In this document: one piece after another, positions 5,211 through 17,141 of the stretch
How positions within the stretch are numbered: the first letter of the stretch is position 1
Layout: the number at the start of each line of letters is the position of its first letter
Program-made: the position numbers and the translations under genes
Notes under the pieces: generated by a model
Told to the model about the DNA's origin: nothing
Databases searched by the model: none
What the model saw: only the letters and a program-made list of their open reading frames with translations
Source of the DNA: Nitrospirota bacterium
Lineage (GTDB): Bacteria > Nitrospirota > Thermodesulfovibrionia > UBA6902
Length of the DNA: 53,393 nucleotides
Assembly: GCA_011040095.1 (NCBI GenBank)
Contig: DRDE01000177.1
Location: 1-53,393 of the forward strand
Direction: 5' to 3'

Positions 5211-6222
5211 AGGCCTATGCACTTGACTGAAGTTACCCCAATATATAGTATACGTGGGTATGGAAGTTTACCCTCGGAATCTTATGGAATTTGAGCAGCA
5301 ATTTGCTTCGGAAGAAGCTTGCCGGGAATATTTGTTTCAATTGCGCTGGCCAAATGGCTTTCAATGTCCTCGGTGTAAGAATCAGAAGAGTTGGAAGACT
5401 ATCCAAAATCTGTATTACTGCACAAGATGTGGATATAAAACTTCGATAACGGCGGGCACAATTTTTCAAGATACGAGTAAGTCTCTGATGATATGGTTTC
5501 GAGCAATGTGGTATGTGACGAATCAAAAACATGGGGTTAGTGCTCTTGGTATGCAACGTGCGCTGGGATTGGGCAGTTATCGGACTGCTTGGGCATGGTT
5601 GCACAAGCTGCGTTGTGCAATGGTGCGACCTGGCCGTGATCGTCTCTCGGGTAAGGTGGAGGTTGATGAAACTTATATTGGGGGGCCAAAGCCAGGGAAA
5701 CGGGGTCGTGGAGCTGCCGGTAAAGTCTTGGTAGTCGTTGTGGCACAACAAGATGGCAAACGAATTGGACGAATCCGCCTTCAACGAGTGGCTGATGCCT
5801 CCGCAGAAAGTTTGAACGATGCTGTACAGAAAAGCGTTGAACCTAATTCCATAGTCCATACAGACGATTGGAATGGATATAAGCAATTGGATAAGTTGGG
5901 TTATACTCATGAGGTTATCCGCCATACATCTGATATTGGTAAAAATCTTTTGCCTTTGGCCAATCGAGTTGTTTCTCTGTTAAAACGATGGCTGTTGGGA
6001 ACTCATCAAGGAGCTGTTAAGATATCGCATCTGGACTATTATCTGGATGAATTTACTTTCCGCTTCAACCGTAGAACTTCCAAATCGAGAGGCAAATTGT
6101 TTTATCGACTTGTTCAACAATCTGTCGAAGTTCCCCCTGTCTTGATAAAGAACATTGTTGGGGATAAATCTGGAAACTAAAATACAATATATAGTATGCA
6201 CTTCAGTCAAGTGCATAGGCCT
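5211..6222 (+). mobile_element. IS1595-family insertion sequence (ISXO2-like)
   Basis: Perfect 23-bp terminal inverted repeats aggcctatgcacttgactgaagt (5211-5233 and 6200-6222) enclose a single transposase ORF. Flanked by the direct repeat ttctttttt (5202-5210 and 6224-6232). Inserted into a sequence that is intact at 2232-2342. Confidence 0.85.
5254..6180 (+). CDS. IS1595-family transposase (N-terminal zinc ribbon plus DDE domain)
   Basis: 308 aa. CPRC...CTRC zinc ribbon, then ...VEVDETYIGG... and ...VHTDDWNGY..., typical of ISXO2-like transposases. Confidence 0.9.
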   Translation: MGMEVYPRNLMEFEQQFASEEACREYLFQLRWPNGFQCPRCKNQKSWKTIQNLYYCTRCGYKTSITAGTIFQDTSKSLMIWFRAMWYVTNQKHGVSALGMQRALGLGSYRTAWAWLHKLRCAMVRPGRDRLSGKVEVDETYIGGPKPGKRGRGAAGKVLVVVVAQQDGKRIGRIRLQRVADASAESLNDAVQKSVEPNSIVHTDDWNGYKQLDKLGYTHEVIRHTSDIGKNLLPLANRVVSLLKRWLLGTHQGAVKISHLDYYLDEFTFRFNRRTSKSRGKLFYRLVQQSVEVPPVLIKNIVGDKSGN

Positions 6223-6233
6223 ATTCTTTTTTA

Positions 6234-6557
6234 TTATGTATGAACTGTTGACTCTTTTAATCTGAAAGGTTTAATCGTTTTTAATTCCTTTGCCTCCATG
6301 AGCTTTGCTTTATATAAATCCCATCGAAGCTGAAGGTTCATCCAGAAATCTTCTGAAACCCCGAAGAATTTCCCGAGCCTTAATGCCGTGCTTGGAGTTA
6401 TTCCACGGCGTTTGTTAATAATTTCATTAATCCTCTGGTATGGGACATGAATATCCTCTGCCAATTCCCTTTGAGTAATACCCATAGGAATCAGGAATTC
6501 TTCAAGGAGCATCTCCCCAGGGTGAGTCGGTTCTCTATGTGTTGGTATGCGAACCAT
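6234..6557 (-). CDS. higA: HigA-family antitoxin (XRE-type HTH), no adjacent toxin
   Basis: MVRIPTHREPTHPGEMLLEEFL...GITQRELAEDIHVPYQRINEIINKRRGITPSTALRLGKFFG is a classic HigA sequence. I prefer the ATG at 6555-6557, which has GGAGG 5 nt upstream. Confidence 0.85.
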   Translation of the reverse strand: MVRIPTHREPTHPGEMLLEEFLIPMGITQRELAEDIHVPYQRINEIINKRRGITPSTALRLGKFFGVSEDFWMNLQLRWDLYKAKLMEAKELKTIKPFRLKESTVHT

Positions 6558-6612
6558 CTTTGCCTCCATAAAATATTTTAGTTTGTGTCATGGAATTAAT
6601 AAAATCTCCCCT

Positions 6613-6656: not shown

Positions 6657-7727
6657 CTATTTCTTTCCAAGATAAACGCCTGCTTTATTCCCGTAACAGT
6701 TATATCTGATGATCCGGATCAATTCAATATTGTCTTTCTTTGTTTCACTGACAATATTCAGCCCGTGAGGGTTATCTCTTACTGGATTGGCATATTTTAT
6801 CTGTTCCTTAAGCATCAGCGCCCCTGCCGCACAGTTAAAGGCGCTGCCGGTCATCATGCTGCCGAACAGGGGAGAATAAGCGGCAGCGGGAATATCTTCA
6901 GAGAGTGAATACGCATAAACGGATTCATCGGCTAACATGCCGTCTGCATCAATAATATTTAAATCCACTTGAGGTGAATTTTCCGTTTCAGCGTCCATGA
7001 GTATATTTTCAACTTCACAAAAAGTATTATCCGTCTTCCTGTTGCTCAACAAAAAGAAGACAGCGCCTTCACCCGGGACGTGAAAGACAGGGTTGAAATC
7101 AAAAGGCTTTATTCTGCCATCAGATGCAGCTCTCAATTTTTCATTATAAATATATCCCAGGACATCACCGTACTGTTCCGCCGTCCCCACCAAGACATAA
7201 TCACACCGCCCCTCATTTAACCATGACCGGGCAAGCTGCAGGGCGCTCTGGAAAGAGAAGAAAAATTGTGTAACGGTCAAGGTCGGCCCCTGAATATTGA
7301 GGGCTGATGATATGTAAGAGGAGGCTGCATTGTGGACCGAATTGGAGAAGGACGTCGGCGAAGGATGTAATTCTCCGTATTGAAGTATTTCGTCCAGAAA
7401 ATCAAATGTCGTTACATGAGGGCCGAATGCCGTTGCAGTTATAATGCCTACTGTTTTTCCGTCAATATTTTCTATCCCGCTGTTTTTAAAGGCCTCGGAA
7501 GCGGCATAAACCGCCATTTTGCTTAATTTGTCGGAACGCCGCATTTTTTTCAGCAATGTCCTGTCGGCAATATTCCTGATATCAGCCAGATATGCAAAGC
7601 TTTTTCCGTCTTTTAAATAAGAAGCGCCAATTTCAGCAGGCTTTTGCCATCCCCGGTTCAGGGCATCACGGAACCTGTCGACTCCCCTGCCCTGCGCACA
7701 GATAATGCCCATCCCGAGGACATTCAT
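6657..7727 (-). CDS. KS-like protein lacking the active-site Cys (chain-length-factor-like partner)
   Basis: 356 aa with a thiolase-fold KS pattern. The GPxxxxxxACSS position reads GPTLTVTQFFFSF (Phe instead of Cys), and the HGTGT and GHxxGAAG histidine motifs are absent. ATGA overlap with the upstream KS (7724-7727). Confidence 0.8.
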   Translation of the reverse strand: MNVLGMGIICAQGRGVDRFRDALNRGWQKPAEIGASYLKDGKSFAYLADIRNIADRTLLKKMRRSDKLSKMAVYAASEAFKNSGIENIDGKTVGIITATAFGPHVTTFDFLDEILQYGELHPSPTSFSNSVHNAASSYISSALNIQGPTLTVTQFFFSFQSALQLARSWLNEGRCDYVLVGTAEQYGDVLGYIYNEKLRAASDGRIKPFDFNPVFHVPGEGAVFFLLSNRKTDNTFCEVENILMDAETENSPQVDLNIIDADGMLADESVYAYSLSEDIPAAAYSPLFGSMMTGSAFNCAAGALMLKEQIKYANPVRDNPHGLNIVSETKKDNIELIRIIRYNCYGNKAGVYLGKK

Positions 7728-8899
7728 CCCTTTCGCTCCAGCACAAGGGCCGCATTATTTCCGCCGAACGCCAGAGATGTGGATAGGGCATATCGTCCGT
7801 CAACAGTTGTCTTCCGGACAACAGGCGCTACCGGGATATTTTCATCCCTGTTTTCAAATCCCGCGCTGGCAGGTATCCACCCTTCCCTTAATGCCGCGGC
7901 GCTGAACACAGCCTCCATTCCTCCGGCTGCGCCTAATGTATGACCGGTATATCCTTTCGTTGATAACATCTTCAGACCTGCCCCGAATATTTTCCCAAGC
8001 AGCCTGCCTTCAACAAGATCGTTATCCGTTGTTGCCGTGCCGTGGGCATTAACAAAGCTTACATCCGCAAGTGTAATACCTGCATCGGAAAGGGCCTTGC
8101 TGATTGACGCTTCCAGTCCCGCACCGTCCGGCCTCGGCGCCGTAAGGTGGTATGAATCACTGGCAGAGCCGTATCCTGAAATAAAAAGCCCGGATGTCAT
8201 CCCTCTCTTTTCAACTGATTCCCTTGTCTCAATAACCAGGATACCCGCTCCTTCACCCAGGTTAAGTCCTTTACGGTCCCGGTCAAAGGGCATGCATAAT
8301 TCACTGCTCAGCACCCCTAAAGATCCAAACCCGCAAAGAGGAACAATGTTCATTTCATCGGCGCCGCCTGCAATGGCTATATCACACAGCCCGTTATTCA
8401 GCCATGATATTGCTACACCGATTGCATCGGTCCCTGAAGAACATGCATTGACAACTGTAAGCGCAGGCCCCCTCACTTTGAATCTGCGCGAAATAAATTC
8501 AGCAACATTGCCCTTTAAATACCTGTTTGCCGACGTCATGGGCGCTGAACGGGTATTGCGGTAAGATTTGTAGAATTCAATATCATTAAGCTGGCTTGCC
8601 ACTGTTGTGCCCAGGCAGACGCCGACCCGGAACCCTGACAGGTCGCTGCCGAGTTCTGCATTCCCGAGCGCTTCATCGACTGCACAGAGGGCAAGGCTCA
8701 GTGTCCTCCGGCCTTCCATGTAGAATTTTTCAGGAATATCTTTGACTTCAAAGACGGGATACGGCAGTGAGGTCTCAAACAGCGTTACCCTTCCTGCATT
8801 CCTCTTTCCCCGGCTGAATGAATCAAGAGTGTTATCGAGACCAACGCCCGCTGCGGAGACTACCCCCAATCCTGTTATCAACACATTATAGTTTCTCAC
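7724..8899 (-). CDS. Beta-ketoacyl-ACP synthase, FabF/FabB-like, catalytically complete
   Basis: 391 aa (GTG start). Motifs: GPALTVVNACSSGTDAI (Cys), VNAHGTATTDND (His), GHTLGAAG (His). Confidence 0.9.
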   Translation of the reverse strand: MRNYNVLITGLGVVSAAGVGLDNTLDSFSRGKRNAGRVTLFETSLPYPVFEVKDIPEKFYMEGRRTLSLALCAVDEALGNAELGSDLSGFRVGVCLGTTVASQLNDIEFYKSYRNTRSAPMTSANRYLKGNVAEFISRRFKVRGPALTVVNACSSGTDAIGVAISWLNNGLCDIAIAGGADEMNIVPLCGFGSLGVLSSELCMPFDRDRKGLNLGEGAGILVIETRESVEKRGMTSGLFISGYGSASDSYHLTAPRPDGAGLEASISKALSDAGITLADVSFVNAHGTATTDNDLVEGRLLGKIFGAGLKMLSTKGYTGHTLGAAGGMEAVFSAAALREGWIPASAGFENRDENIPVAPVVRKTTVDGRYALSTSLAFGGNNAALVLERKG

Positions 8900-9219
8900 A
8901 TTAATCGGATATGACCGGACTCCTGCAATTTTTGATTATCATTTTATTTGCCTGTTTATGAGAACTATCAAGGAAGTGAAAATACTATAAAATAATAAAA
9001 TCCCGAAGTCAAGAAAATATAAAATCCTGCCGGATTCCCATAGGGGAAAAAGGTCATATGTCTCCGGTAAAATATTGTGTGTACTCCTCCTTGCTTTTTG
9101 ATTTGGAATATTAAGCTTTTTTGTGATACTATCTTCTCATCCTGGTAAGTTTTTGCCCATAAAAAACTTGCCATATGAGATTAAAAACTGATGTGCTTTC
9201 TGTCTGACCACTATTTTTC

Positions 9220-10668
9220 ATGAAAAAGAAGAAAAAGATTTTATTTATCCACCCCCTTGGAGTAAACTGGGTGCCGGGCGAAACAGATATGTCCCGTGTT
9301 GCGAATATAATGCCCCCGCTCGGACTTTTAAGCCTTGCCGCCTGGGTGGAGAAACATGGGCATATTTCTTCTGTTCATGACTGCTATGCCTACCCGGTTC
9401 AGGATGAAAAAATCATTGAAAAAATAAAAACAGATACTCCCGACTACATAGGATTCAGCACCACAACATCAAGTTTCCCTGATGCTGTCCGGATTGCAAT
9501 GAAGATAAGAGAAGTTATGCCCAAAATAAAAAATATTTTCGGTGGTGTGCATATCTCGGCCCTCAATGAAACCCTGCTGCAGGATTATCCTGTCATCGAC
9601 TATGGCATTGTGGGTGAGGGGGAACTTACCCTGTTATCGTTAATTGAGAGTGACGGACAGATAGGGAAAAATGTTCCGGGCCTTTTATACCGGGATGGGG
9701 ATGAAATCATTTTTACAGGGTTTCGTAATAAAGAACAGTTGATTGATCTGGACACACTCCCTTTTCCTGCATACGACAAACTGAATGGTTTTCCCGATTT
9801 ATACAAATTACCCATTTTTAATTATCCGAGGGCTCCGCATACAACCGCTGTTTCAAGCAGGGGATGTCCTTACAAGTGTTCATACTGCGACAGGACCGTA
9901 TTTAAACGTTCATACCGTTTTAATTCTGCGGGGTATTTATATGACCACGTTAAACATCTGAACCGGAAATATGGTATAAGGCATATTAATTTTTATGATG
10001 ATCTCTTTACATTTAACCGTAAAAGGGTGGAAGAATTCTGCAGACTTTTAATAAATAAAAAGAGAGGGATTACATTTAATTGTGCTGCTCGCGCTGAACA
10101 TGTTGATAGGGACTTATTGCTATTAATGAAAAAGGCCGGCTGCTGGATGATCAGCCTCGGAATAGAAACCGGTGATTCGGAGCTTCTGGGGGTTCACCGT
10201 TCCAATTCCGATCTTGAAATGATAAGAAGCAAGGTTGAATTAATACGTGAGTCCGGAATAAGGGTAAAGGGTCTGTTTATGATGGGTCTGCCGGGAGAAA
10301 CTGAAGAAAGCATAGACAAGAGCATTAAATATGCTTTGGATATCCCGCTTAATGATATGAACCTGACAAAGTTTACTCCATTTCCGGGAAGTCCTGTTTA
10401 TAAGGAAATCAGACGTTACGGGACATTTAATGAAAAATGGGAGCTGATGAACTGTACAAATTTTGTTTTTGTACCGAATGGACTCACACATGAACGGCTT
10501 GAAGAACGTTACAAGGAATTTTACAGAAGGCATTTTGAACGGTATCACATACTGTTTGACTATATGACAATGATTTGGCGATCTCCCGACAGCTGGGTGC
10601 GTTTTCTTTTAAACCTGCGGGGATTTTTAAGGATCAGAAATACTTTCAGAGGAAACAAATCCGCCTGA
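9220..10668 (+). CDS. Cobalamin-binding-domain (class B) radical SAM enzyme
   Basis: 482 aa. N-terminal B12-type Rossmann region (KKILFIHP...PDYIGFSTTT...IFGGVHISA), then SSRGCPYKCSYC (CX3CX2C). Confidence 0.9.
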   Translation: MKKKKKILFIHPLGVNWVPGETDMSRVANIMPPLGLLSLAAWVEKHGHISSVHDCYAYPVQDEKIIEKIKTDTPDYIGFSTTTSSFPDAVRIAMKIREVMPKIKNIFGGVHISALNETLLQDYPVIDYGIVGEGELTLLSLIESDGQIGKNVPGLLYRDGDEIIFTGFRNKEQLIDLDTLPFPAYDKLNGFPDLYKLPIFNYPRAPHTTAVSSRGCPYKCSYCDRTVFKRSYRFNSAGYLYDHVKHLNRKYGIRHINFYDDLFTFNRKRVEEFCRLLINKKRGITFNCAARAEHVDRDLLLLMKKAGCWMISLGIETGDSELLGVHRSNSDLEMIRSKVELIRESGIRVKGLFMMGLPGETEESIDKSIKYALDIPLNDMNLTKFTPFPGSPVYKEIRRYGTFNEKWELMNCTNFVFVPNGLTHERLEERYKEFYRRHFERYHILFDYMTMIWRSPDSWVRFLLNLRGFLRIRNTFRGNKSA

Positions 10669-10715
10669 TCCATTGATTAGCACAGGGACGGTAATGATAT
10701 AATGTATAAGTCGAG

Positions 10716-12014
10716 ATGAAGATTCTTTTAGTAAATCCCCCGAATGCCGGGATAAGCATTCCGGTTGAAAAATTTGGTTTAAAAGAAACACAAAAAATTT
10801 TCAAAGGGGAACCCTTTGCGTTAGAGGTGCTTGCAGGGAATCTTGAAAACCATGAAACAAAAATTATTGATTTGAAAATTCCCGGTGAATCTTTGGAAAA
10901 AGAAATCTCCACCTTTTCTCCTGATATAGTGGCTTTTACCTCGCTCACCTGTGAAGCCAATACTGTTTTAAACCTCAGCCGGGAGACAAAAGGCATTGAT
11001 AAAAAGATTAAAATTGCAGTTGGTGGTGTTCATGCCAGCAGCGATCCCGCTTTTTTTAACAGAGATTTTATTGATTATTTAATTATAGGACTTGGCAAAC
11101 ACACTTTCAGAAAGCTTGTTGATTCACTGGAAAGGAATGGTTATCCTGAAGAACTTGCGGGGGTAGCCGGGACAAATCCGCAGGCCGGCATTTCATTTAT
11201 AAGGCGGGAATTTGATAGAACGGACCTTGTGGAGGAAAAACCTCCGGCATATGATCTTGTCACCGTATATCGCAAAAACTATGTGATTGACTCTCTGGGG
11301 ATAAGCATGGGATACATAAACACAGCATATGGTTGTCCCAACAACTGTTCTTTTTGTTGTATCGGCAATATAACGGGAAACCGTTATATTGAACATAATA
11401 TAGAATGTGTAATTCGTGATTTAACGCTGCTCGAAGACATTCCGGTTATACGATTGGTGGACGCAAACACCTTTGCAAACCCTGATAGAGCAAAAAAGTT
11501 GTGTAATGCAATAAAAAGCAGCAACTTTAAAAAGCGCTTTATTGCCGATGCCTGTGCGGATTCAATAGTTTCGGATCCCGGGCTTTTTGAGCAATGGCAA
11601 AAAGCCGGCCTTCATGCGGTTATTATCGGATTTGAGGAAATTAACAATGAAAGGTTGTCGGGATGGAGAAAGAAAAGCACTTTGGTCATCGTTCAAAAGG
11701 CAATCGAAATACTTCATGATCTTGAAATCTCAATTGTAGGTGATTTTATTATATCCCCGGACTATTGTGAAAATGATTTCAGAAAGCTGGAAACTTTTGT
11801 TGAAAAAAGCGCAATTGAGCTTCCTGTTTTCTCGGTTTTAACGCCTTTGCCGGGAACTCCGCTTTACAAAACCATGCAAAATGATATTATAATCCACAAT
11901 CTTGATTATTATACTTTGGGAAATGCAGTAACTGAGACAGCCTTGCCCGAAAAGGAATTCTATACAATTTTAACCGGACTTCAAGACAGGTTTCATCGTA
12001 AAGCCAGACTCTGA
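10716..12014 (+). CDS. Cobalamin-binding-domain (class B) radical SAM enzyme
   Basis: 432 aa. MKILLVNPP...PDIVAFTSLT...AVGGVHASS, then YGCPNNCSFC (CX3CX2C). Confidence 0.9.
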   Translation: MKILLVNPPNAGISIPVEKFGLKETQKIFKGEPFALEVLAGNLENHETKIIDLKIPGESLEKEISTFSPDIVAFTSLTCEANTVLNLSRETKGIDKKIKIAVGGVHASSDPAFFNRDFIDYLIIGLGKHTFRKLVDSLERNGYPEELAGVAGTNPQAGISFIRREFDRTDLVEEKPPAYDLVTVYRKNYVIDSLGISMGYINTAYGCPNNCSFCCIGNITGNRYIEHNIECVIRDLTLLEDIPVIRLVDANTFANPDRAKKLCNAIKSSNFKKRFIADACADSIVSDPGLFEQWQKAGLHAVIIGFEEINNERLSGWRKKSTLVIVQKAIEILHDLEISIVGDFIISPDYCENDFRKLETFVEKSAIELPVFSVLTPLPGTPLYKTMQNDIIIHNLDYYTLGNAVTETALPEKEFYTILTGLQDRFHRKARL

Positions 12015-12031
12015 AAAGGAATTAAGACCCT

Positions 12032-13180
12032 ATGGACGTTTATATCACCGGCACATCAGCATTCTTACCGAATGACCCTGTAGAAAACGATCAGGTGGAG
12101 GATATTATAGGAAGCATTACAAGGCTCTCTCCCAAGGTAAAAGAAATAGTCCTGAAAAGTAATGGCATTAAGAAAAGATACTATGCCATCCATCCACAAA
12201 CAAGAAAACCGACACACACTAATGCACGGCTTGCAGCAGAAGCAATCAAGAGATTGATAAGCTCATCCGGCATTTCCGGAAATGATATTGAACTTCTTGC
12301 CTGTGGCACTTCAATACCTGACCAGATATTGCCGGGGCATGCTTCAATCATACACGGTGAGCTCGGGACAGCCCCCTGTGAAATAATTTCCTGCTCGGGT
12401 GTCTGTTGCTCGGGAATGGCTGCAATGAAATATGCCTACGCAAATGTTTCTGCCGGTTTTTCTAAAGTTGCTGTTGCCTCAGCATCAGAGGCCGCTTCTT
12501 CATATATCAGGAAGGAGAACTATCGAATCCCCCCGCAGGAAAATAATCCTGCTTTATCCGACAATTCAATGCCCGGATTTAACGGTGAATTCCTGAGATG
12601 GATGTTATCTGATGGCGCAGGGGCGGTTCTTTTAGAAAATAAATGCCCTGAAGATCGCATATCCCTTAAAATAGAATGGATAGAGCAGCGCTCCTTTGCC
12701 AACGAGCTTGATACATGCATGTATGCCGGAGCAGTAAAAAATGACGACGGCAGCCTCAGGGGATGGCGTGATTTTGATTCACTTCAGGATGCACTTGGCA
12801 ATAATGTTTTTGCCATTCAACAGGACGTTAAACTTCTAAACAAAGAAATTGTAAAGACTGCCGTGGAACGGGCCCTCATCCCCGTAGCAAAAAGCCGCGA
12901 GCTGTCACCTGAACAGATCGACTGGTTTCTTCCGCACTATTCATCAGATTATTTCAGAAGCGATTTTTTCGAGAAACTTAAATTTAATGGTTTTGAAATC
13001 CCATACAGCAAATGGTTTACCAACCTGACTGAGAAGGGTAACACCGGAGCAGCTTCGATTTTCATAATTCTGGATGAGCTGTTTAAATCCGGAAAAATCA
13101 AAAGAGGGGAAAAGCTTCTTTGTTTTATCCCTGAAAGCGGCAGATTTACAATATGTTATATGCTTCTGACAGTGGTTTGA
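12032..13180 (+). CDS. Long-form KAS III (FabH-like) condensing enzyme
   Basis: 382 aa. Candidate catalytic residues: Cys in SCSGVCCSGMAA, His in FLPHYSS, Asn in EKGNTGAASI. The N-terminus (FLPNDPVEND...LKSNGIKKRYYA) differs from canonical FabH. Confidence 0.8.
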   Translation: MDVYITGTSAFLPNDPVENDQVEDIIGSITRLSPKVKEIVLKSNGIKKRYYAIHPQTRKPTHTNARLAAEAIKRLISSSGISGNDIELLACGTSIPDQILPGHASIIHGELGTAPCEIISCSGVCCSGMAAMKYAYANVSAGFSKVAVASASEAASSYIRKENYRIPPQENNPALSDNSMPGFNGEFLRWMLSDGAGAVLLENKCPEDRISLKIEWIEQRSFANELDTCMYAGAVKNDDGSLRGWRDFDSLQDALGNNVFAIQQDVKLLNKEIVKTAVERALIPVAKSRELSPEQIDWFLPHYSSDYFRSDFFEKLKFNGFEIPYSKWFTNLTEKGNTGAASIFIILDELFKSGKIKRGEKLLCFIPESGRFTICYMLLTVV

Positions 13181-13191
13181 AAATCATTGAA

Positions 13192-13479
13192 TCAGGAAGC
13201 AAAAATCTTTTTATTTATAAAATCAGCAAGTGTATTAATGGATTTAAGAACCTGGCGGGAAGTGTTGATGTCCCTTATGCGAACCTTGTATTTCTTTTCC
13301 AGGGCAACCACTATTTCCACGGCATCAAGTGAATCTATACCTAATGGCGAAGAGGGATCAATCAGGGGTTCATCATCCTTAATATGATCCGCAGTAATAC
13401 CTACTTCCTGCAGATTGCAGGTCTCGACAACCAGCTCTTTCAATTCACTTTTCAAGGATTTTATTGCCTGCTCACTCAT
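13192..13479 (-). CDS. Acyl carrier protein
   Basis: LGIDSLDAVEIVVALE phosphopantetheine-attachment motif. I prefer the second ATG (AGGA 7 nt upstream); the ORF track extends to 13497. Confidence 0.85.
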   Translation of the reverse strand: MSEQAIKSLKSELKELVVETCNLQEVGITADHIKDDEPLIDPSSPLGIDSLDAVEIVVALEKKYKVRIRDINTSRQVLKSINTLADFINKKIFAS

Positions 13480-13570
13480 AGTTGATTCCTGCTGCATTGT
13501 AAAGGTTTTGCGGCAGGCTCACCTGCCTTATTTATGCAAGATAATATCGCCTGTAATAAATATTCAAAAT

Positions 13571-14854
13571 TCAAACAAGCTTGGAGCGTAAACCGGAAAT
13601 GAACATCGTTAAAACAAAAAAGCTCAGAAGTTTTATTGCATTCGGCAAAATCACAAGAAGATTACCATCCCTGAGAAAAATGTCCAGGAAACCTTTAAGC
13701 CCCCATGAAAGAGGAGATATCACACTTATTTTTTGCATAAATTCCGGCATAACAAAGACAGGCACCATAACACCTCCCAAGGCGGCGGCGACAACAACAG
13801 AAATTGCCCCGAATGTTGACGCCTGCTCCTGTGTACCGGCCACAGTTCCAAGCATTACACCAAAACCGGCAGCAGCAAGCCCCGAGCTGAGAGCTATTAA
13901 CACCATTGCCGGATAATTAGATCCCATTACCAGTATTTCCGTGCCAAGCGCGGGCAGGATAAATATGCCGACTAAAAGCATTAAGACAGACTGTATCATA
14001 CATATGCATAAATATACAATTATTTTCCCCAGTATATGCGTGGGATAAGATACCGGCATAGTCCTCAACCTGAGGAAGATTCCATCTTTACTTTCTTTAA
14101 TCATGTTTCCTGCCAGGGGAATCGCTATGAGAAAAATTGCGAACATGGTCCAGGCCGGAACATTTTGCTGTACGGCATTAGGGGTAATACTTAAACTCTC
14201 CGGAACAGCATAGATTTCCCTGATTTTAACCAGAGGCTCACGGTAATTCTTTTTCTCTTCTTTTTTTGTCTCTCTTCCATTCCCTGAAAACTCTCTCGAT
14301 ATAACATCGAGGACAGATCTCTTTTCAATGTTTGCAGCAAAACCATTCAGGGAGCTTATAATCGAATTTTGAAATGATTTTCGAACAGCAGGATCAAGGT
14401 AAACCTCAATCTCCAGTGGTTGAGAATCTTCTTTAGAATTTTTACTCGTTGACTCTGAACCCTGGAAAATTGTTTTTTTAACCATCTCTATGGCTTTTTC
14501 CTGAATTTTTCTGCTCGCCCCCTCAGGAACTATAATCCCTATCTGAAAATCTCCCTTTGAGACCTTTTCCCTGAGGATTTTTTCATCCACTTCTTTTCCA
14601 TGTATCTTTTTTGTTAAAGAAAAATTTCCTGCTTCATTCAAACCTCTCTCAAGCGACAAACCGAAAGTCCCCCGGTCATTATCAAGATAAATCAATTTGA
14701 TTTCCGTTTCTTTGACTGCCCTGAACGCGCTGTCCTGGACGAGGGTGACTACCAAAACGAGAACCATGGGCATTATAAAAAGTACGCCCAGGCCCGCCTT
14801 GTCTCTGAACAGAATCAGAAACTCTTTCTTAACGGTTGATAATAGCCTGAACAT
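13571..14854 (-). CDS. ABC-2-type transporter permease
   Basis: 427 aa. One N-terminal TM helix, a large soluble loop, then five or six C-terminal TM segments. Lies 3 nt downstream of the ATPase gene. Confidence 0.8.
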   Translation of the reverse strand: MFRLLSTVKKEFLILFRDKAGLGVLFIMPMVLVLVVTLVQDSAFRAVKETEIKLIYLDNDRGTFGLSLERGLNEAGNFSLTKKIHGKEVDEKILREKVSKGDFQIGIIVPEGASRKIQEKAIEMVKKTIFQGSESTSKNSKEDSQPLEIEVYLDPAVRKSFQNSIISSLNGFAANIEKRSVLDVISREFSGNGRETKKEEKKNYREPLVKIREIYAVPESLSITPNAVQQNVPAWTMFAIFLIAIPLAGNMIKESKDGIFLRLRTMPVSYPTHILGKIIVYLCICMIQSVLMLLVGIFILPALGTEILVMGSNYPAMVLIALSSGLAAAGFGVMLGTVAGTQEQASTFGAISVVVAAALGGVMVPVFVMPEFMQKISVISPLSWGLKGFLDIFLRDGNLLVILPNAIKLLSFFVLTMFISGLRSKLV

Positions 14855-14857
14855 TCC

Positions 14858-15616
14858 CTAATCTCTCAATTCCTTTCCGGTCAAATTAAGAAAAAAATCT
14901 TCAAGCCTGTTAAATTTACTTCCATCCCCTAACAGGTCCCCAGGGGTTCCTTCTGTTAATATCCTTCCGTTGTCCATTATCGCAATACGCGAACACAGGT
15001 TCTCCGCTTCCTCAAGATAGTGCGTAGTATAGATTATTGTAGTATCGCGATTGCCTGTATCCATTAGATATTCCAATATAACATTGCGGGATTGTACGTC
15101 AATGCCGACCGTAGGCTCGTCAAGAATCAGTACCCTGGGTTTATGAAGAACTGCCGCAATCAGGTTGGTTCTTCTTTTCATTCCACCTGAAAAGGTCGAT
15201 ATCTTTCTATCGGCGTTCTTCTCAAGTCCAAGCAGCTCCAGACATTCATCGATACGCTTTTCCAGATATTTCCCTCTGAACCCGTACATATTACCGAAAA
15301 ACCTCAGATTCTCTCTCGCTGTTAATGAAGAATAAAGGGCCAGGTCCTGGGGGACAACGCCAATGACTTTCTTTATTTCAGCTAAATGCTTTTCAATATT
15401 AACCCCAAAGAACTCAACACTTCCCTTTGATTGTTTCAGCAGTCCGCAAAGAACAGATATAGTCGTAGTTTTCCCCGCGCCATTCGGACCCAGGAGTCCG
15501 TACCTTTCACCACTTTCAATTGCAAATGAAATATTATTAATTGCAGGTTCTTTACTTCCCTCGTATTTTTTGGTTAGTTCTGAAATCTTATAAGCTTGTT
15601 TATTGAAATCGAACAT
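14858..15616 (-). CDS. ABC transporter ATP-binding protein
   Basis: Walker A GPNGAGKTTT, signature FSGGMKRR, Walker B LILDEPTVGID. Confidence 0.92.
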   Translation of the reverse strand: MFDFNKQAYKISELTKKYEGSKEPAINNISFAIESGERYGLLGPNGAGKTTTISVLCGLLKQSKGSVEFFGVNIEKHLAEIKKVIGVVPQDLALYSSLTARENLRFFGNMYGFRGKYLEKRIDECLELLGLEKNADRKISTFSGGMKRRTNLIAAVLHKPRVLILDEPTVGIDVQSRNVILEYLMDTGNRDTTIIYTTHYLEEAENLCSRIAIMDNGRILTEGTPGDLLGDGSKFNRLEDFFLNLTGKELRD

Positions 15617-16618
15617 TCAAAATAAAATCTTTTTAAGTTCCTTAAATATATTTTCTTCCATATTTGAACATTCTGTCAAAATACCGGCCAGTTTGCCGTA
15701 AAGTTCAGGAGAGACTTCATTATTCTTACAGCTTCTTGCCGAAGCAAGAGCAAACTCCCGCCATTTATCCCCGACTATGGTCATATCTTCAGACAGACCC
15801 GACATTGATTTAAGATTCAAAAACCCGGATGCTTCCTGTAGAAAAGAAGAAAACATAAAACGAAAACCGGCCCCACCAGTGCCAATCTCTTCCTGCATCC
15901 GGATTACCTGTCCCAAATAAAGCAATGCCTTTTTACTGCCAAGCTTATCCGGCCATTTTTTCATATGCCGTGCCAGATAACGTATCCCCTTAACACCGAC
16001 CATGGGAAATGGTATGGATAACATATTTTTTACGGTCACTTTAATCCCTTTCCGGATCGCTTTATTAAACTCAATTCTTTCAGGGATTTTCTCAATATAA
16101 TACATCCGCCCCTTCGGAGCCAGAGGACCCTTTGCAAATCTGACTCTCATCAGATCATCGTATGAACATCTGACAGGAGTTTCCATAACAGGATCGCTTA
16201 TCAGATATTCCCCGTTTTCTTTTCCGTATACAACAATATTATGGGCATTAAAATGAAACCGGTAAGAAGGGGGAAAATACGGGAGCCAATAAACGCCGAC
16301 CTGAAGGCCCACAGGAGATCCCCTTTCAATTATTGTGTCAATATCCGCCATGGCTTTTGAGGGATATCTATATCTCAGGCTTCTGACTTTGATGCCAAGT
16401 CGTTTTGTTGCTGATTTAAAAACATATCCGGGAGTATATCTGAATGTTGTAAGAGGCAAATAATTTACTTTTACAAAAGGCAAATAAGCAAAAAACAAAC
16501 CGGACCCGATTCCGAATACCATTGCTTCACTCAAATCAACACCATGATATTTTAAAAGGCTGGAAGTAACCCCACTCTCGCAATGGGCTGACTGTTTATG
16601 CTGAAAATCTATATTCAT
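15617..16618 (-). CDS. BtrH-N/DUF4872-like protein (cysteine-peptidase-fold acyl-ACP transferase family)
   Basis: The N-terminus FQHKQSAHCESGVTSSLLKYHGVDLSEAMVFGIGSGLFFAY matches the butirosin BtrH N-terminal domain pattern as I recall it. I prefer the start MNIDF at 16618. Confidence 0.65.
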   Translation of the reverse strand: MNIDFQHKQSAHCESGVTSSLLKYHGVDLSEAMVFGIGSGLFFAYLPFVKVNYLPLTTFRYTPGYVFKSATKRLGIKVRSLRYRYPSKAMADIDTIIERGSPVGLQVGVYWLPYFPPSYRFHFNAHNIVVYGKENGEYLISDPVMETPVRCSYDDLMRVRFAKGPLAPKGRMYYIEKIPERIEFNKAIRKGIKVTVKNMLSIPFPMVGVKGIRYLARHMKKWPDKLGSKKALLYLGQVIRMQEEIGTGGAGFRFMFSSFLQEASGFLNLKSMSGLSEDMTIVGDKWREFALASARSCKNNEVSPELYGKLAGILTECSNMEENIFKELKKILF

Positions 16619-16625
16619 AATATCT

Positions 16626-17141
16626 CTAACGCACCTCTTTAAGTTCATCCACGGTTAATGAAAATACTTTCGCGTAATGCTCCAATATAGAATCATCAAG
16701 CTTATCAAAACATTCGGGATTCAGGTGTTTTTTTATTTTTCTTTTTGAAAAACCTGCATAATCCGAAAGCAGTTTTAAATCCATTTGATGTCTGGCCATA
16801 TAATAAGCTATCGGGCTCAGCTCACCTCTCAGCACCTTTTTCTTTACATCATTAGCCTTCTCTTCAATAAGCTCCCAGGCCTGGGCGTTCACTATCTGTT
16901 TGGCTTTCCATCCGGTGCTCCTGACGGTAGTATAGTTACCGCTCTCATCAACAGCATAACAGAGCTCTCTGCACTCACTCATCATTTTGCTTTTATCCTG
17001 GGGTACCTCGTTTTTTTTCAAAACCAATCTCCATTCTTCGAGCGTAAAATTAAAACAATATGCAGGAAAGAGTTCAGGGATGCTTGATTGATCATATTTC
17101 AAATGCAGGGATGCAAAGCGGAATGCAGGCTTCGGGGTCAA
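16626..17141 (-). CDS. Hypothetical protein with a possible C-terminal HTH-like region
   Basis: 171-aa ORF. Its TTG start overlaps the ACP stop (TTGA at 17138-17141); an internal ATG (MMSECREL) is an alternative. No family recognised. Confidence 0.45.
   Translation of the reverse strand: MTPKPAFRFASLHLKYDQSSIPELFPAYCFNFTLEEWRLVLKKNEVPQDKSKMMSECRELCYAVDESGNYTTVRSTGWKAKQIVNAQAWELIEEKANDVKKKVLRGELSPIAYYMARHQMDLKLLSDYAGFSKRKIKKHLNPECFDKLDDSILEHYAKVFSLTVDELKEVR

Follow-up and report, generated by a model that had tools for sequence, protein, structure and literature searches.

A predicted B12-domain radical SAM protein occupies the position of DarA beside a putative DarB-family ketosynthase-cyclase in a Nitrospirota lipid gene cluster

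Dialkylresorcinols and bacterial stilbenes act as signalling molecules, antioxidants and pigment anchors, and are the basis of an approved drug (tapinarof). The pathway has so far been described as the condensing enzyme DarB plus the aromatase DarA. Specifically, DarB, StlD and BrtD join a β-ketoacyl thioester and a 2-enoyl thioester to form a carboxy-cyclohexanedione; the resorcinol appears only upon addition of the aromatase, and decarboxylation accompanies aromatisation (PMC6836626, PMC13748660). A 2019 review noted DarBs that lack DarA as an open point (PMC6836626). The dar sub-cluster of Azoarcus contains darA, darB, a small hypothetical gene, a BtrH-like gene, genes for an ABC ATPase and permease, an acyl carrier protein (ACP) gene and a ketosynthase (KS) gene, with darC tabulated as the ACP and darJ as the ketosynthase (PMC3949708). 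Here we analysed contig DRDE01000177.1 of a Nitrospirota bacterium (assembly GCA_011040095.1), a stretch of 53,393 nt referred to below as the window. It carries an operon of two radical SAM genes, rSAM1 and rSAM2, and a gene for a KAS III protein (β-ketoacyl-ACP synthase III) that we assign to the DarB family. In the loci and genomes examined, rSAM2 is a conserved, co-evolving partner of DarB, lies in the position of DarA and is strictly alternative to DarA; no rSAM2 ortholog was seen without DarB.

The alternation between rSAM2 and DarA is observed in metagenome loci. The sample consisted of 80 metagenome loci with a DarB alignment, analysed with our own open reading frame (ORF) calling and blastp, and later with profile hidden Markov models (HMMs). 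A darABC-like trio on a Burkholderia pseudomallei plasmid served as the DarA probe, and because DarA has no Pfam or NCBIfam model, a DarA profile was built from 27 metagenome DarAs. The gene directly upstream of DarB is rSAM2 in 25 non-redundant loci and DarA in 45 loci; both are present in none, neither is present in 6 that extend far enough upstream, and 13 further loci are too short upstream to be classified. Fisher's test of this complementarity gives p = 9e-15, for loci that are phylogenetically related.

The same alternation is found in Desulfobacterota, the phylum of Desulfuromonas versatilis, where 22 of 301 species genomes encode a DarB above the cut-off. rSAM2 lies directly upstream of DarB on the same strand in 10 of these 22 genomes, and DarA lies directly upstream in 12 (11 intact, 1 fragmented). 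None of the 22 encodes orthologs of both rSAM2 and DarA, and none encodes neither; one rSAM2-type genome has only a remote flavodoxin-like match of 80 bits, 1.35 Mb away. When all 301 genomes are searched with the rSAM2 profile, orthologs come up in exactly the same ten genomes, one copy each, and nowhere else. The DarA profile, which recovers its positive controls with E values of 1e-94 to 1e-140, has no match in the genome of the window, which is 79% complete, nor in those of D. versatilis and Geoalkalibacter halelectricus, which are both complete.

The maximum-likelihood (ML) tree of DarB indicates how the two locus types are related. The tree has 91 rows and includes FabH from the genome of the window; OleA, PqsD and CerJ are absent from it, and HMM and Protein Data Bank (PDB) scores were used for that comparison instead. 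All rSAM-linked DarBs fall in one clade (37 rows, 100/98 support) together with four DarA-linked DarBs. Within the tree, the rSAM-linked DarB of locus L042 is sister to the DarA-linked DarB of locus L029 (100/92 support), which argues that near relatives have swapped partners. The pairwise identities of the two proteins, rSAM2 and DarB, are correlated (r = 0.905; Mantel 0/2000). The predicted structure of DarA (predicted local distance difference test score, pLDDT, 93) contains an N-terminal flavodoxin/WrbA/PnpB-like domain followed by long C-terminal helices, a helical anchor, and according to the models DarA and rSAM2 are unrelated in fold.

The 382-aa KAS III of the window is predicted to be a head-to-head ketosynthase-cyclase of the StlD/DarB family and not FabH. 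It scores 537.9 bits on the StlD/DarB-family model NF005293 (cut-off 450), covers profile positions 1-378 of 378, and is the sole match above the cut-off in the whole genome. The structure of StlD (5gk0) aligns with it over the full length (E 2.7e-119); in the PDB comparison the best FabH chain reaches 1e-18 and OleA-type chains reach about 1e-6. Residues Cys125, Glu153, His302 and Asn337 are invariant in eight DarB/StlD-family proteins and identical in the alignment with StlD. The FabH models TIGR00747 (92.1 bits, cut-off 292) and NF006829 (104.2 bits, cut-off 249) are matched below their cut-offs, in two partial stretches each, and the 'exception' model for canonical DarB, NF053539, is not reached either (459.4 bits, cut-off 550). 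In the ML tree, the protein sits in the 100/98-supported DarB sub-clade, StlD groups with DarA-linked DarBs, and the branch that leads to the FabH of the genome has a length of about 10 changes per column. That FabH is a separate, housekeeping-type 327-aa FabH-like ORF on contig C99. A first-pass annotation of the window, made from the letters alone, had compared the 382-aa protein with DarB-type condensing enzymes and had named starter-unit synthesis and head-to-head condensation as possible roles. The family model, the StlD structure, the tree, in which the protein does not cluster with housekeeping FabH, and the separate FabH gene bear out the comparison, and with it the head-to-head guess; starter-unit synthesis found no support.

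The orthologs of rSAM2 form a family with B12-domain radical SAM architecture and a length of about 431 aa. The radical SAM cysteines C207, C211 and C214 are invariant in 40 orthologs. On the profile of this family, orthologs score 628-744 bits, other radical SAM proteins in the loci score at most 128 bits, and rSAM1 scores 83 bits. The AlphaFold2 model of rSAM2 (pLDDT 92) has a class-B-type radical SAM fold. Its best match in the PDB is AprD4 (template modelling score, TM, 0.76), and further matches are TsrM, MgmA, OxsB, CysS and TokK. AprD4, a non-methylating 1,2-diol dehydratase, shares the B12-domain architecture yet works without cobalamin; the B12 domain alone is therefore no proof that rSAM2 uses cobalamin. 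Both rSAM1 and rSAM2 score above the Pfam gathering thresholds for PF02310 (B12-binding) and PF04055 (Radical_SAM), so that both have the predicted architecture of class B radical SAM enzymes, with putative use of cobalamin. The best NCBIfam match of rSAM2 is the hopanoid C-3 methylase HpnR (TIGR04367), which is matched over nearly the full length with 153.6 bits (cut-off 650). BchE (TIGR02026; 93.5 bits, cut-off 481) and TIGR04072 (36 bits, cut-off 360) are also matched below their cut-offs, HpnJ is among the matches, and HemN is not matched at E ≤ 0.001.

Adjacent rSAM2 and DarB genes, usually 10-17 nt apart, occur on Thermodesulfovibrionia-labelled contigs, in D. versatilis and G. halelectricus (complete genomes), in an unclassified metagenome-assembled genome (MAG), and in 19 metagenome loci; the radical SAM protein has 431 or 432 aa in the MAG and the two complete genomes. 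The DarBs nearest to that of the window (77-80% identical) are on Thermodesulfovibrionia-labelled contigs. A search of the 60 nearest species genomes found no DarB and no close rSAM2, and synteny was therefore examined on metagenome and assembly contigs. A scan of the genome collection with the single rSAM2 protein returned one irrelevant match of 26% identity. The Thermodesulfovibrionia-labelled contigs L021 and L024 carry the KS pair, a divergent 432-aa radical SAM gene with DarB, and a convergent ACP gene, followed by two ABC genes, DarH, DarG, ACP, LpxL, GT2 and the ladder radical SAM pair. Synteny with the rest of the cluster, on which the first-pass annotation had made its reading depend, thus holds in the nearest relatives that have the DarB operon.

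Two further arrangements were observed among relatives of this operon. In D. versatilis (L020, 4519-8022) and G. halelectricus (L108, 4050-6524), a gene for an RPE65-type carotenoid-oxygenase-like protein and alpha/beta-hydrolase genes lie just upstream of rSAM2-DarB; an oxygenase-family gene beside a radical SAM gene is odd in strict anaerobes. Two DarB-less relatives from the same family, L113 (G012:C49, 3569-12835) and L114 (G030:C38), contain a second pairing of a KAS III with a B12-type radical SAM protein. Specifically, a distant DarB-like KAS III (125 bits on NF005293) is encoded beside an rSAM2 paralog of 33-34% identity, and the neighbouring genes encode three crotonases, a holo-ACP synthase, a 3-hydroxyacyl-CoA dehydrogenase, FabF, a thioesterase and an acetoacetate-decarboxylase-like protein.

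rSAM1 is below the cut-off of every NCBIfam model. Its best match is BchE (TIGR02026; 200.9 bits, cut-off 481), and its scores on TIGR04072 and HpnR (TIGR04367) are 107 bits (cut-off 360) and 76.9 bits (cut-off 650). Orthologs (58-91% identity) span many phyla, with well conserved ones (58-73%) in Nitrospirota, Deltaproteobacteria, Planctomycetota and Sumerlaeia, and are near DarB only in the window, L022 and L111. Elsewhere they take other places within lipid clusters of a similar kind (L110, L111, L112): after the TIGR04072 pair in a Phycisphaerales genome, directly upstream of DarA-DarB-DarG-DarH on a deltaproteobacterial contig, and, in another MAG, after genes for MMPL, ACP, an unassigned protein of 427 aa, an FAD enzyme and an AMP ligase. 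Because rSAM1 co-occurs with DarA, it is not a substitute for DarA. The slot between KS and rSAM2 is polymorphic. It is occupied by rSAM1 in the window and in L022 (1-1167; 82% identical), by an unrelated 205-aa signal-peptide protein, outer-membrane-like and encoded on the opposite strand, in L021 (3783-4858), and by no gene in L024 (8474-8686; about 210 bp). rSAM1 is a putative optional accessory tailoring enzyme inserted into this variable slot. The first-pass annotation had coupled both radical SAM genes as a pair to the KAS III. The pair is rejected, as rSAM1 is missing from L021 and L024 and stands elsewhere in L110-L112; of the proposed co-conservation, the rSAM2-DarB part stands and the rSAM1 part falls. 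Among the very close relatives compared for the slot, two contigs encode an identical DarB protein.

In the reading that the data support best, rSAM2 would perform the oxidative decarboxylation and aromatisation of the DarB product in place of DarA, and we regard the prospects of this proposal as close to evenly balanced. It draws on the strict complementarity, the identical position, the co-evolution and the retention of DarG and DarH. The latter two are present in rSAM-type and DarA-type loci alike, with similar identity, which argues that the same kind of acceptor is made in both. That rSAM2 represents a new functional class of radical SAM enzymes, a DarA-independent aromatase non-homologous to DarA and repeatedly exchanged with it among anaerobic lineages, is a possibility that we hold slightly more tentatively.

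In the proposed mechanism, DarB would, by analogy with its characterised relatives, join a β-ketoacyl and a 2-enoyl thioester, probably bound to the adjacent ACP, into a 2,5-dialkyl-carboxy-cyclohexanedione. The 5'-deoxyadenosyl radical of rSAM2 would then take the ring hydrogen next to the carboxyl-bearing carbon. HemN abstracts a hydrogen β to a carboxylate, after which CO2 and one electron are lost. By the same logic, CO2 and one electron would be lost in the rSAM2 step, with cobalamin or a cluster as the acceptor, to give an enone that would tautomerise to the resorcinol. DarH and DarG would esterify the resorcinol with an ACP-bound polyene acid, the ABC and LolA/MMPL genes would export the final product, and rSAM1 would add optional extra tailoring.

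Several points weigh against the aromatase proposal. We know of no B12-type radical SAM enzyme that aromatises its substrate via decarboxylation. Methylases make up most of the class B radical SAM enzymes characterised so far, and the best NCBIfam match of rSAM2 is a methylase, HpnR, albeit with 154 of the 650 bits of the cut-off. The idea that DarA serves aerobes and rSAM2 serves anaerobes is weakened, as DarA is present in 12 of the 22 DarB-positive genomes, which are from largely anaerobic Desulfobacterota; the swap as an adaptation to anoxia is weakly supported. Because the genome of the window is 79% complete, the absence of DarA from it is no proof alone. Finally, neither partner is beside DarB in L025, L026, L055, L068, L071 and L074, nor on the Lentisphaerae contig L109, so that the partner is not always adjacent.

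Three other readings were weighed against the proposal that rSAM2 is an aromatase, chief among them a role as a methylase or in some other tailoring of the ring. rSAM2 could be a cobalamin-dependent C-methyltransferase that acts on the DarB cyclohexanedione or on an alkyl chain, with no need for a DarA-like step; the head group would then be a methylated cyclohexanedione, or the ring would aromatise without an enzyme. We consider this unlikely, if still worth serious attention. The prevalence of methylases among characterised class B enzymes speaks for it, as do the nearly full-length match to HpnR as the nearest named NCBIfam model (154 bits), the automatic annotation of rSAM2 family members as 'hopanoid C-3 methylase' in several sources, and the methylases TsrM, MgmA, CysS and TokK among the fold matches. 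However, a methylase should at times co-occur with DarA, and it does so in 0 of 70 partner-bearing loci and 0 of 22 genomes. In addition, the cut-off of HpnR is widely missed and AprD4, the best fold match, is non-methylating. Both locus types conserve DarH and DarG, the presumed users of the ring hydroxyl, and dialkylresorcinol is not formed in vitro without the aromatase (PMC6836626).

Less likely again is a different radical rearrangement of the DarB product, such as a dehydration, ring contraction or C-C cyclisation of the kind associated with AprD4, OxsB, HpnJ or BchE, which would give a non-resorcinol head group and make the DarA step obsolete. The dehydratase AprD4 as the top fold match (TM 0.76) fits such chemistry; BchE and HpnJ are among the NCBIfam matches, and the cluster encodes, in addition to a SPASM enzyme, three more radical SAM enzymes of the B12 type. 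However, no particular rearrangement is directly indicated, and the swap of partners between nearly identical DarBs with retention of DarG and DarH is explained more easily by the same product. It is very improbable that the KAS III is a FabH-like enzyme that primes the polyene starter unit, with both radical SAM enzymes modifying the starter. The location beside the KS pair and the weak matches to FabH models (92-104 bits) would agree with priming, but the protein is above the StlD/DarB cut-off and far below all FabH cut-offs, it nests within DarB/StlD with FabH on a very long branch, and rSAM1 is not co-conserved with it.

A few DarB loci differ from both the rSAM2 type and the DarA type. 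Prevotella and Nostoc plasmids carry DarB without an annotated DarA. In the Nostoc flagelliforme plasmid pNFSY08 (L026, 4992-7704), in a region unannotated in the record, DarB has 482 aa with a C-terminal extension, DarA is missing, and the sequence that follows encodes a fragment of a Haem_oxygenas_2 'iron-containing redox enzyme' and then a DUF6999 protein; these neighbours may be another alternative partner of DarB. On the Lentisphaerae contig (L109, 3882-5874), the order is DarB-DarG-DarH-ABC-ACP, and a gene for a 232-aa signal-peptide protein lies upstream instead of rSAM2 or DarA; a Lentisphaerae rSAM2 ortholog exists on another contig. In one Desulfobacterota genome (G152:C15:44781-46071), DarB has an in-frame TAG and only DarA fragments are alongside; this darAB pair may be in decay, or the assembly may be at fault.

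The features of the operon and its surroundings are collected in Table 1. The ORFs and Pfam domains of the two radical SAM genes on the plus strand, which the first-pass annotation had called from their motifs, are confirmed, as are the spacing and N-terminus of the KAS III (MDVYITGTSAFLPNDPVEND...LKSNGIKKRYYA) and the arrangement in which the operon diverges from the KS pair and converges on an ACP gene. A Shine-Dalgarno-like AAGGA lies in the 17 nt that separate the stop of rSAM2 from the ATG of the KAS III gene, and the stop of the KAS III gene (13180) is 11 nt from the stop of the ACP gene. A scan of the divergent intergenic region for the sigma-70 consensus found 15 sites, compared with 12.4 +/- 3.2 in shuffles, which is not above chance; a scan for the terminator consensus was also no better than shuffled sequence. 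The start of rSAM1 is uncertain (9220-9290): the public gene call has 465 aa (P0258), and no Shine-Dalgarno sequence precedes the ATG at 9220. The long form is favoured because 482-aa orthologs span its full length.

Table 1. Genes and intergenic region of the rSAM2-DarB operon and the adjoining dar module, in coordinates of the window
Feature	Position	Strand	Size, domains or scores
Cys-less KS-like partner (CLF-like)	6657-7727	-	Pfam ketoacyl-synt N-terminal domain only
Complete β-ketoacyl synthase, darJ position	7724-8899	-	Pfam ketoacyl-synt N and C domains
Divergent intergenic region, presumed promoters, variable slot	8900-9219	.	320 bp
rSAM1	9220-10668	+	482 aa; motif CPYKCSYC; Pfam B12-binding and Radical_SAM
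rSAM2	10716-12014	+	432 aa; motif CPNNCSFC; Pfam B12-binding and Radical_SAM
KAS III, predicted StlD/DarB-family ketosynthase-cyclase	12032-13180	+	382 aa; NF005293
ACP, DarC-like position	13192-13497	-	Pfam PP-binding
ABC-2 permease	13571-14854	-	Pfam and NCBIfam
ABC ATPase	14858-15616	-	Pfam and NCBIfam
DarH (BtrH-like acyltransferase)	15617-16648	-	NF053550, 482.7 bits (cut-off 300)
DarG	16626-17141	-	NF053536 (DarG family), 161.6 bits (cut-off 70)

The operon's neighbours, namely the KS pair, ACP, ABC exporter and BtrH-like gene, correspond to the remaining genes of the dar module as known, a correspondence that, like the DarA position of rSAM2, the first-pass annotation had missed. DarG, BtrH-like DarH, the ABC ATPase and permease, ACP, KS and DarB are all present and adjacent, and DarA is not. 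Homologs of the KS and its partner flank rSAM2-DarB or the dar ACP in L020, L021, L024, L038, L040, L050, L064 and L108, with 76%-identical orthologs of the KS in the same place in L021 and L024. Orthologs of the ACP gene are convergent and directly 3' of DarB in L017, L020-L024, L039, L040, L043, L056 and L108. The ABC permease and ATPase genes are kept beside DarH in both rSAM-type and DarA-type loci.

The larger region from 6657 to 36077 is, by family-library matches, a flexirubin/aryl-polyene-like lipid cluster. It contains DarG, BtrH-like DarH, the ABC-2 exporter, ACPs, KS/partner pairs, LpxL-like and GT2 proteins, a SPASM enzyme, FlxY-like and FlxB-like proteins, LolA2 and an MMPL transporter. 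A 'ladderane-type' radical SAM protein of TIGR04072 (19542-21065; 612 bits, cut-off 360) is encoded together with another radical SAM partner of the B12 type. We read the operon as the part that forms the ring in a dar module of flexirubin/arcuflavin-like kind, set inside this radical-SAM-rich aryl-polyene-type lipid cluster. The first-pass annotation had already suggested that the operon may be a separate branch; on our reading it is the dialkylresorcinol branch of the big polyene-lipid cluster. Among the 60 nearest species genomes, 12 encode a TIGR04072 protein above the cut-off and none encodes DarB, which argues that the resorcinol branch is an optional add-on in this lineage. At the border of the cluster, the KS-like gene adjoins an orphan HigA antitoxin gene (6234-6569) and a transposase gene of the IS1595 family (5254-6180), an arrangement consistent with a mobile, patchily distributed cluster.

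The exchange of DarA for a radical SAM protein would be a new variation on the known dialkylresorcinol pathway. Our literature search, which did not cover all journals, found no publication linking a radical SAM enzyme to DarB. The rSAM2 family is a candidate for the missing step in many anaerobes, two cultured species among them. Confirmation of its role as an aromatase would extend class B radical SAM chemistry by a new type of reaction. The analysis also corrects the automatic annotations 'hopanoid C-3 methylase', 'YgiQ' and 'beta-ketoacyl-ACP synthase III', and shows the dialkylresorcinol branch to be an optional addition to 'ladderane-type' radical SAM lipid clusters.

The locus can be compared with four described systems. 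As in darABC, StlCDE and BrtCD, the condensing enzyme of the window belongs, judged by its family match, to the same family with the same catalytic residues, an ACP gene is adjacent, and a tightly spaced gene lies immediately upstream; in contrast, that upstream gene encodes a B12-domain radical SAM protein and not the flavodoxin-like DarA. The gene set also matches those of the arcuflavin dar cluster of Azoarcus sp. BH72 (darA, B, D, E, F, I, C, J, K) and of flexirubin clusters (Chitinophaga, Flavobacterium). However, the genes of the window are split into convergent and divergent operons around rSAM-DarB instead of forming one collinear string, DarA is replaced, rSAM1 is extra, and the host cluster contains the TIGR04072 radical SAM pair.

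HpnR resembles rSAM2 in combining a B12 domain with a radical SAM domain, and its substrate is a lipid, but rSAM2 is far under the HpnR cut-off and the locus has no hopanoid context. Radical SAM enzymes are known to replace unrelated redox enzymes at a single step, with HemN standing in for HemF and BchE, which is of the B12 type, for AcsF. The exchange of DarA for rSAM2 would follow the same stand-in pattern, and the chemistry of HemN is what the DarA step would need. rSAM2 differs from HemN and BchE in that it lies outside both families and in that the division of DarA and rSAM2 between aerobes and anaerobes is not clean.

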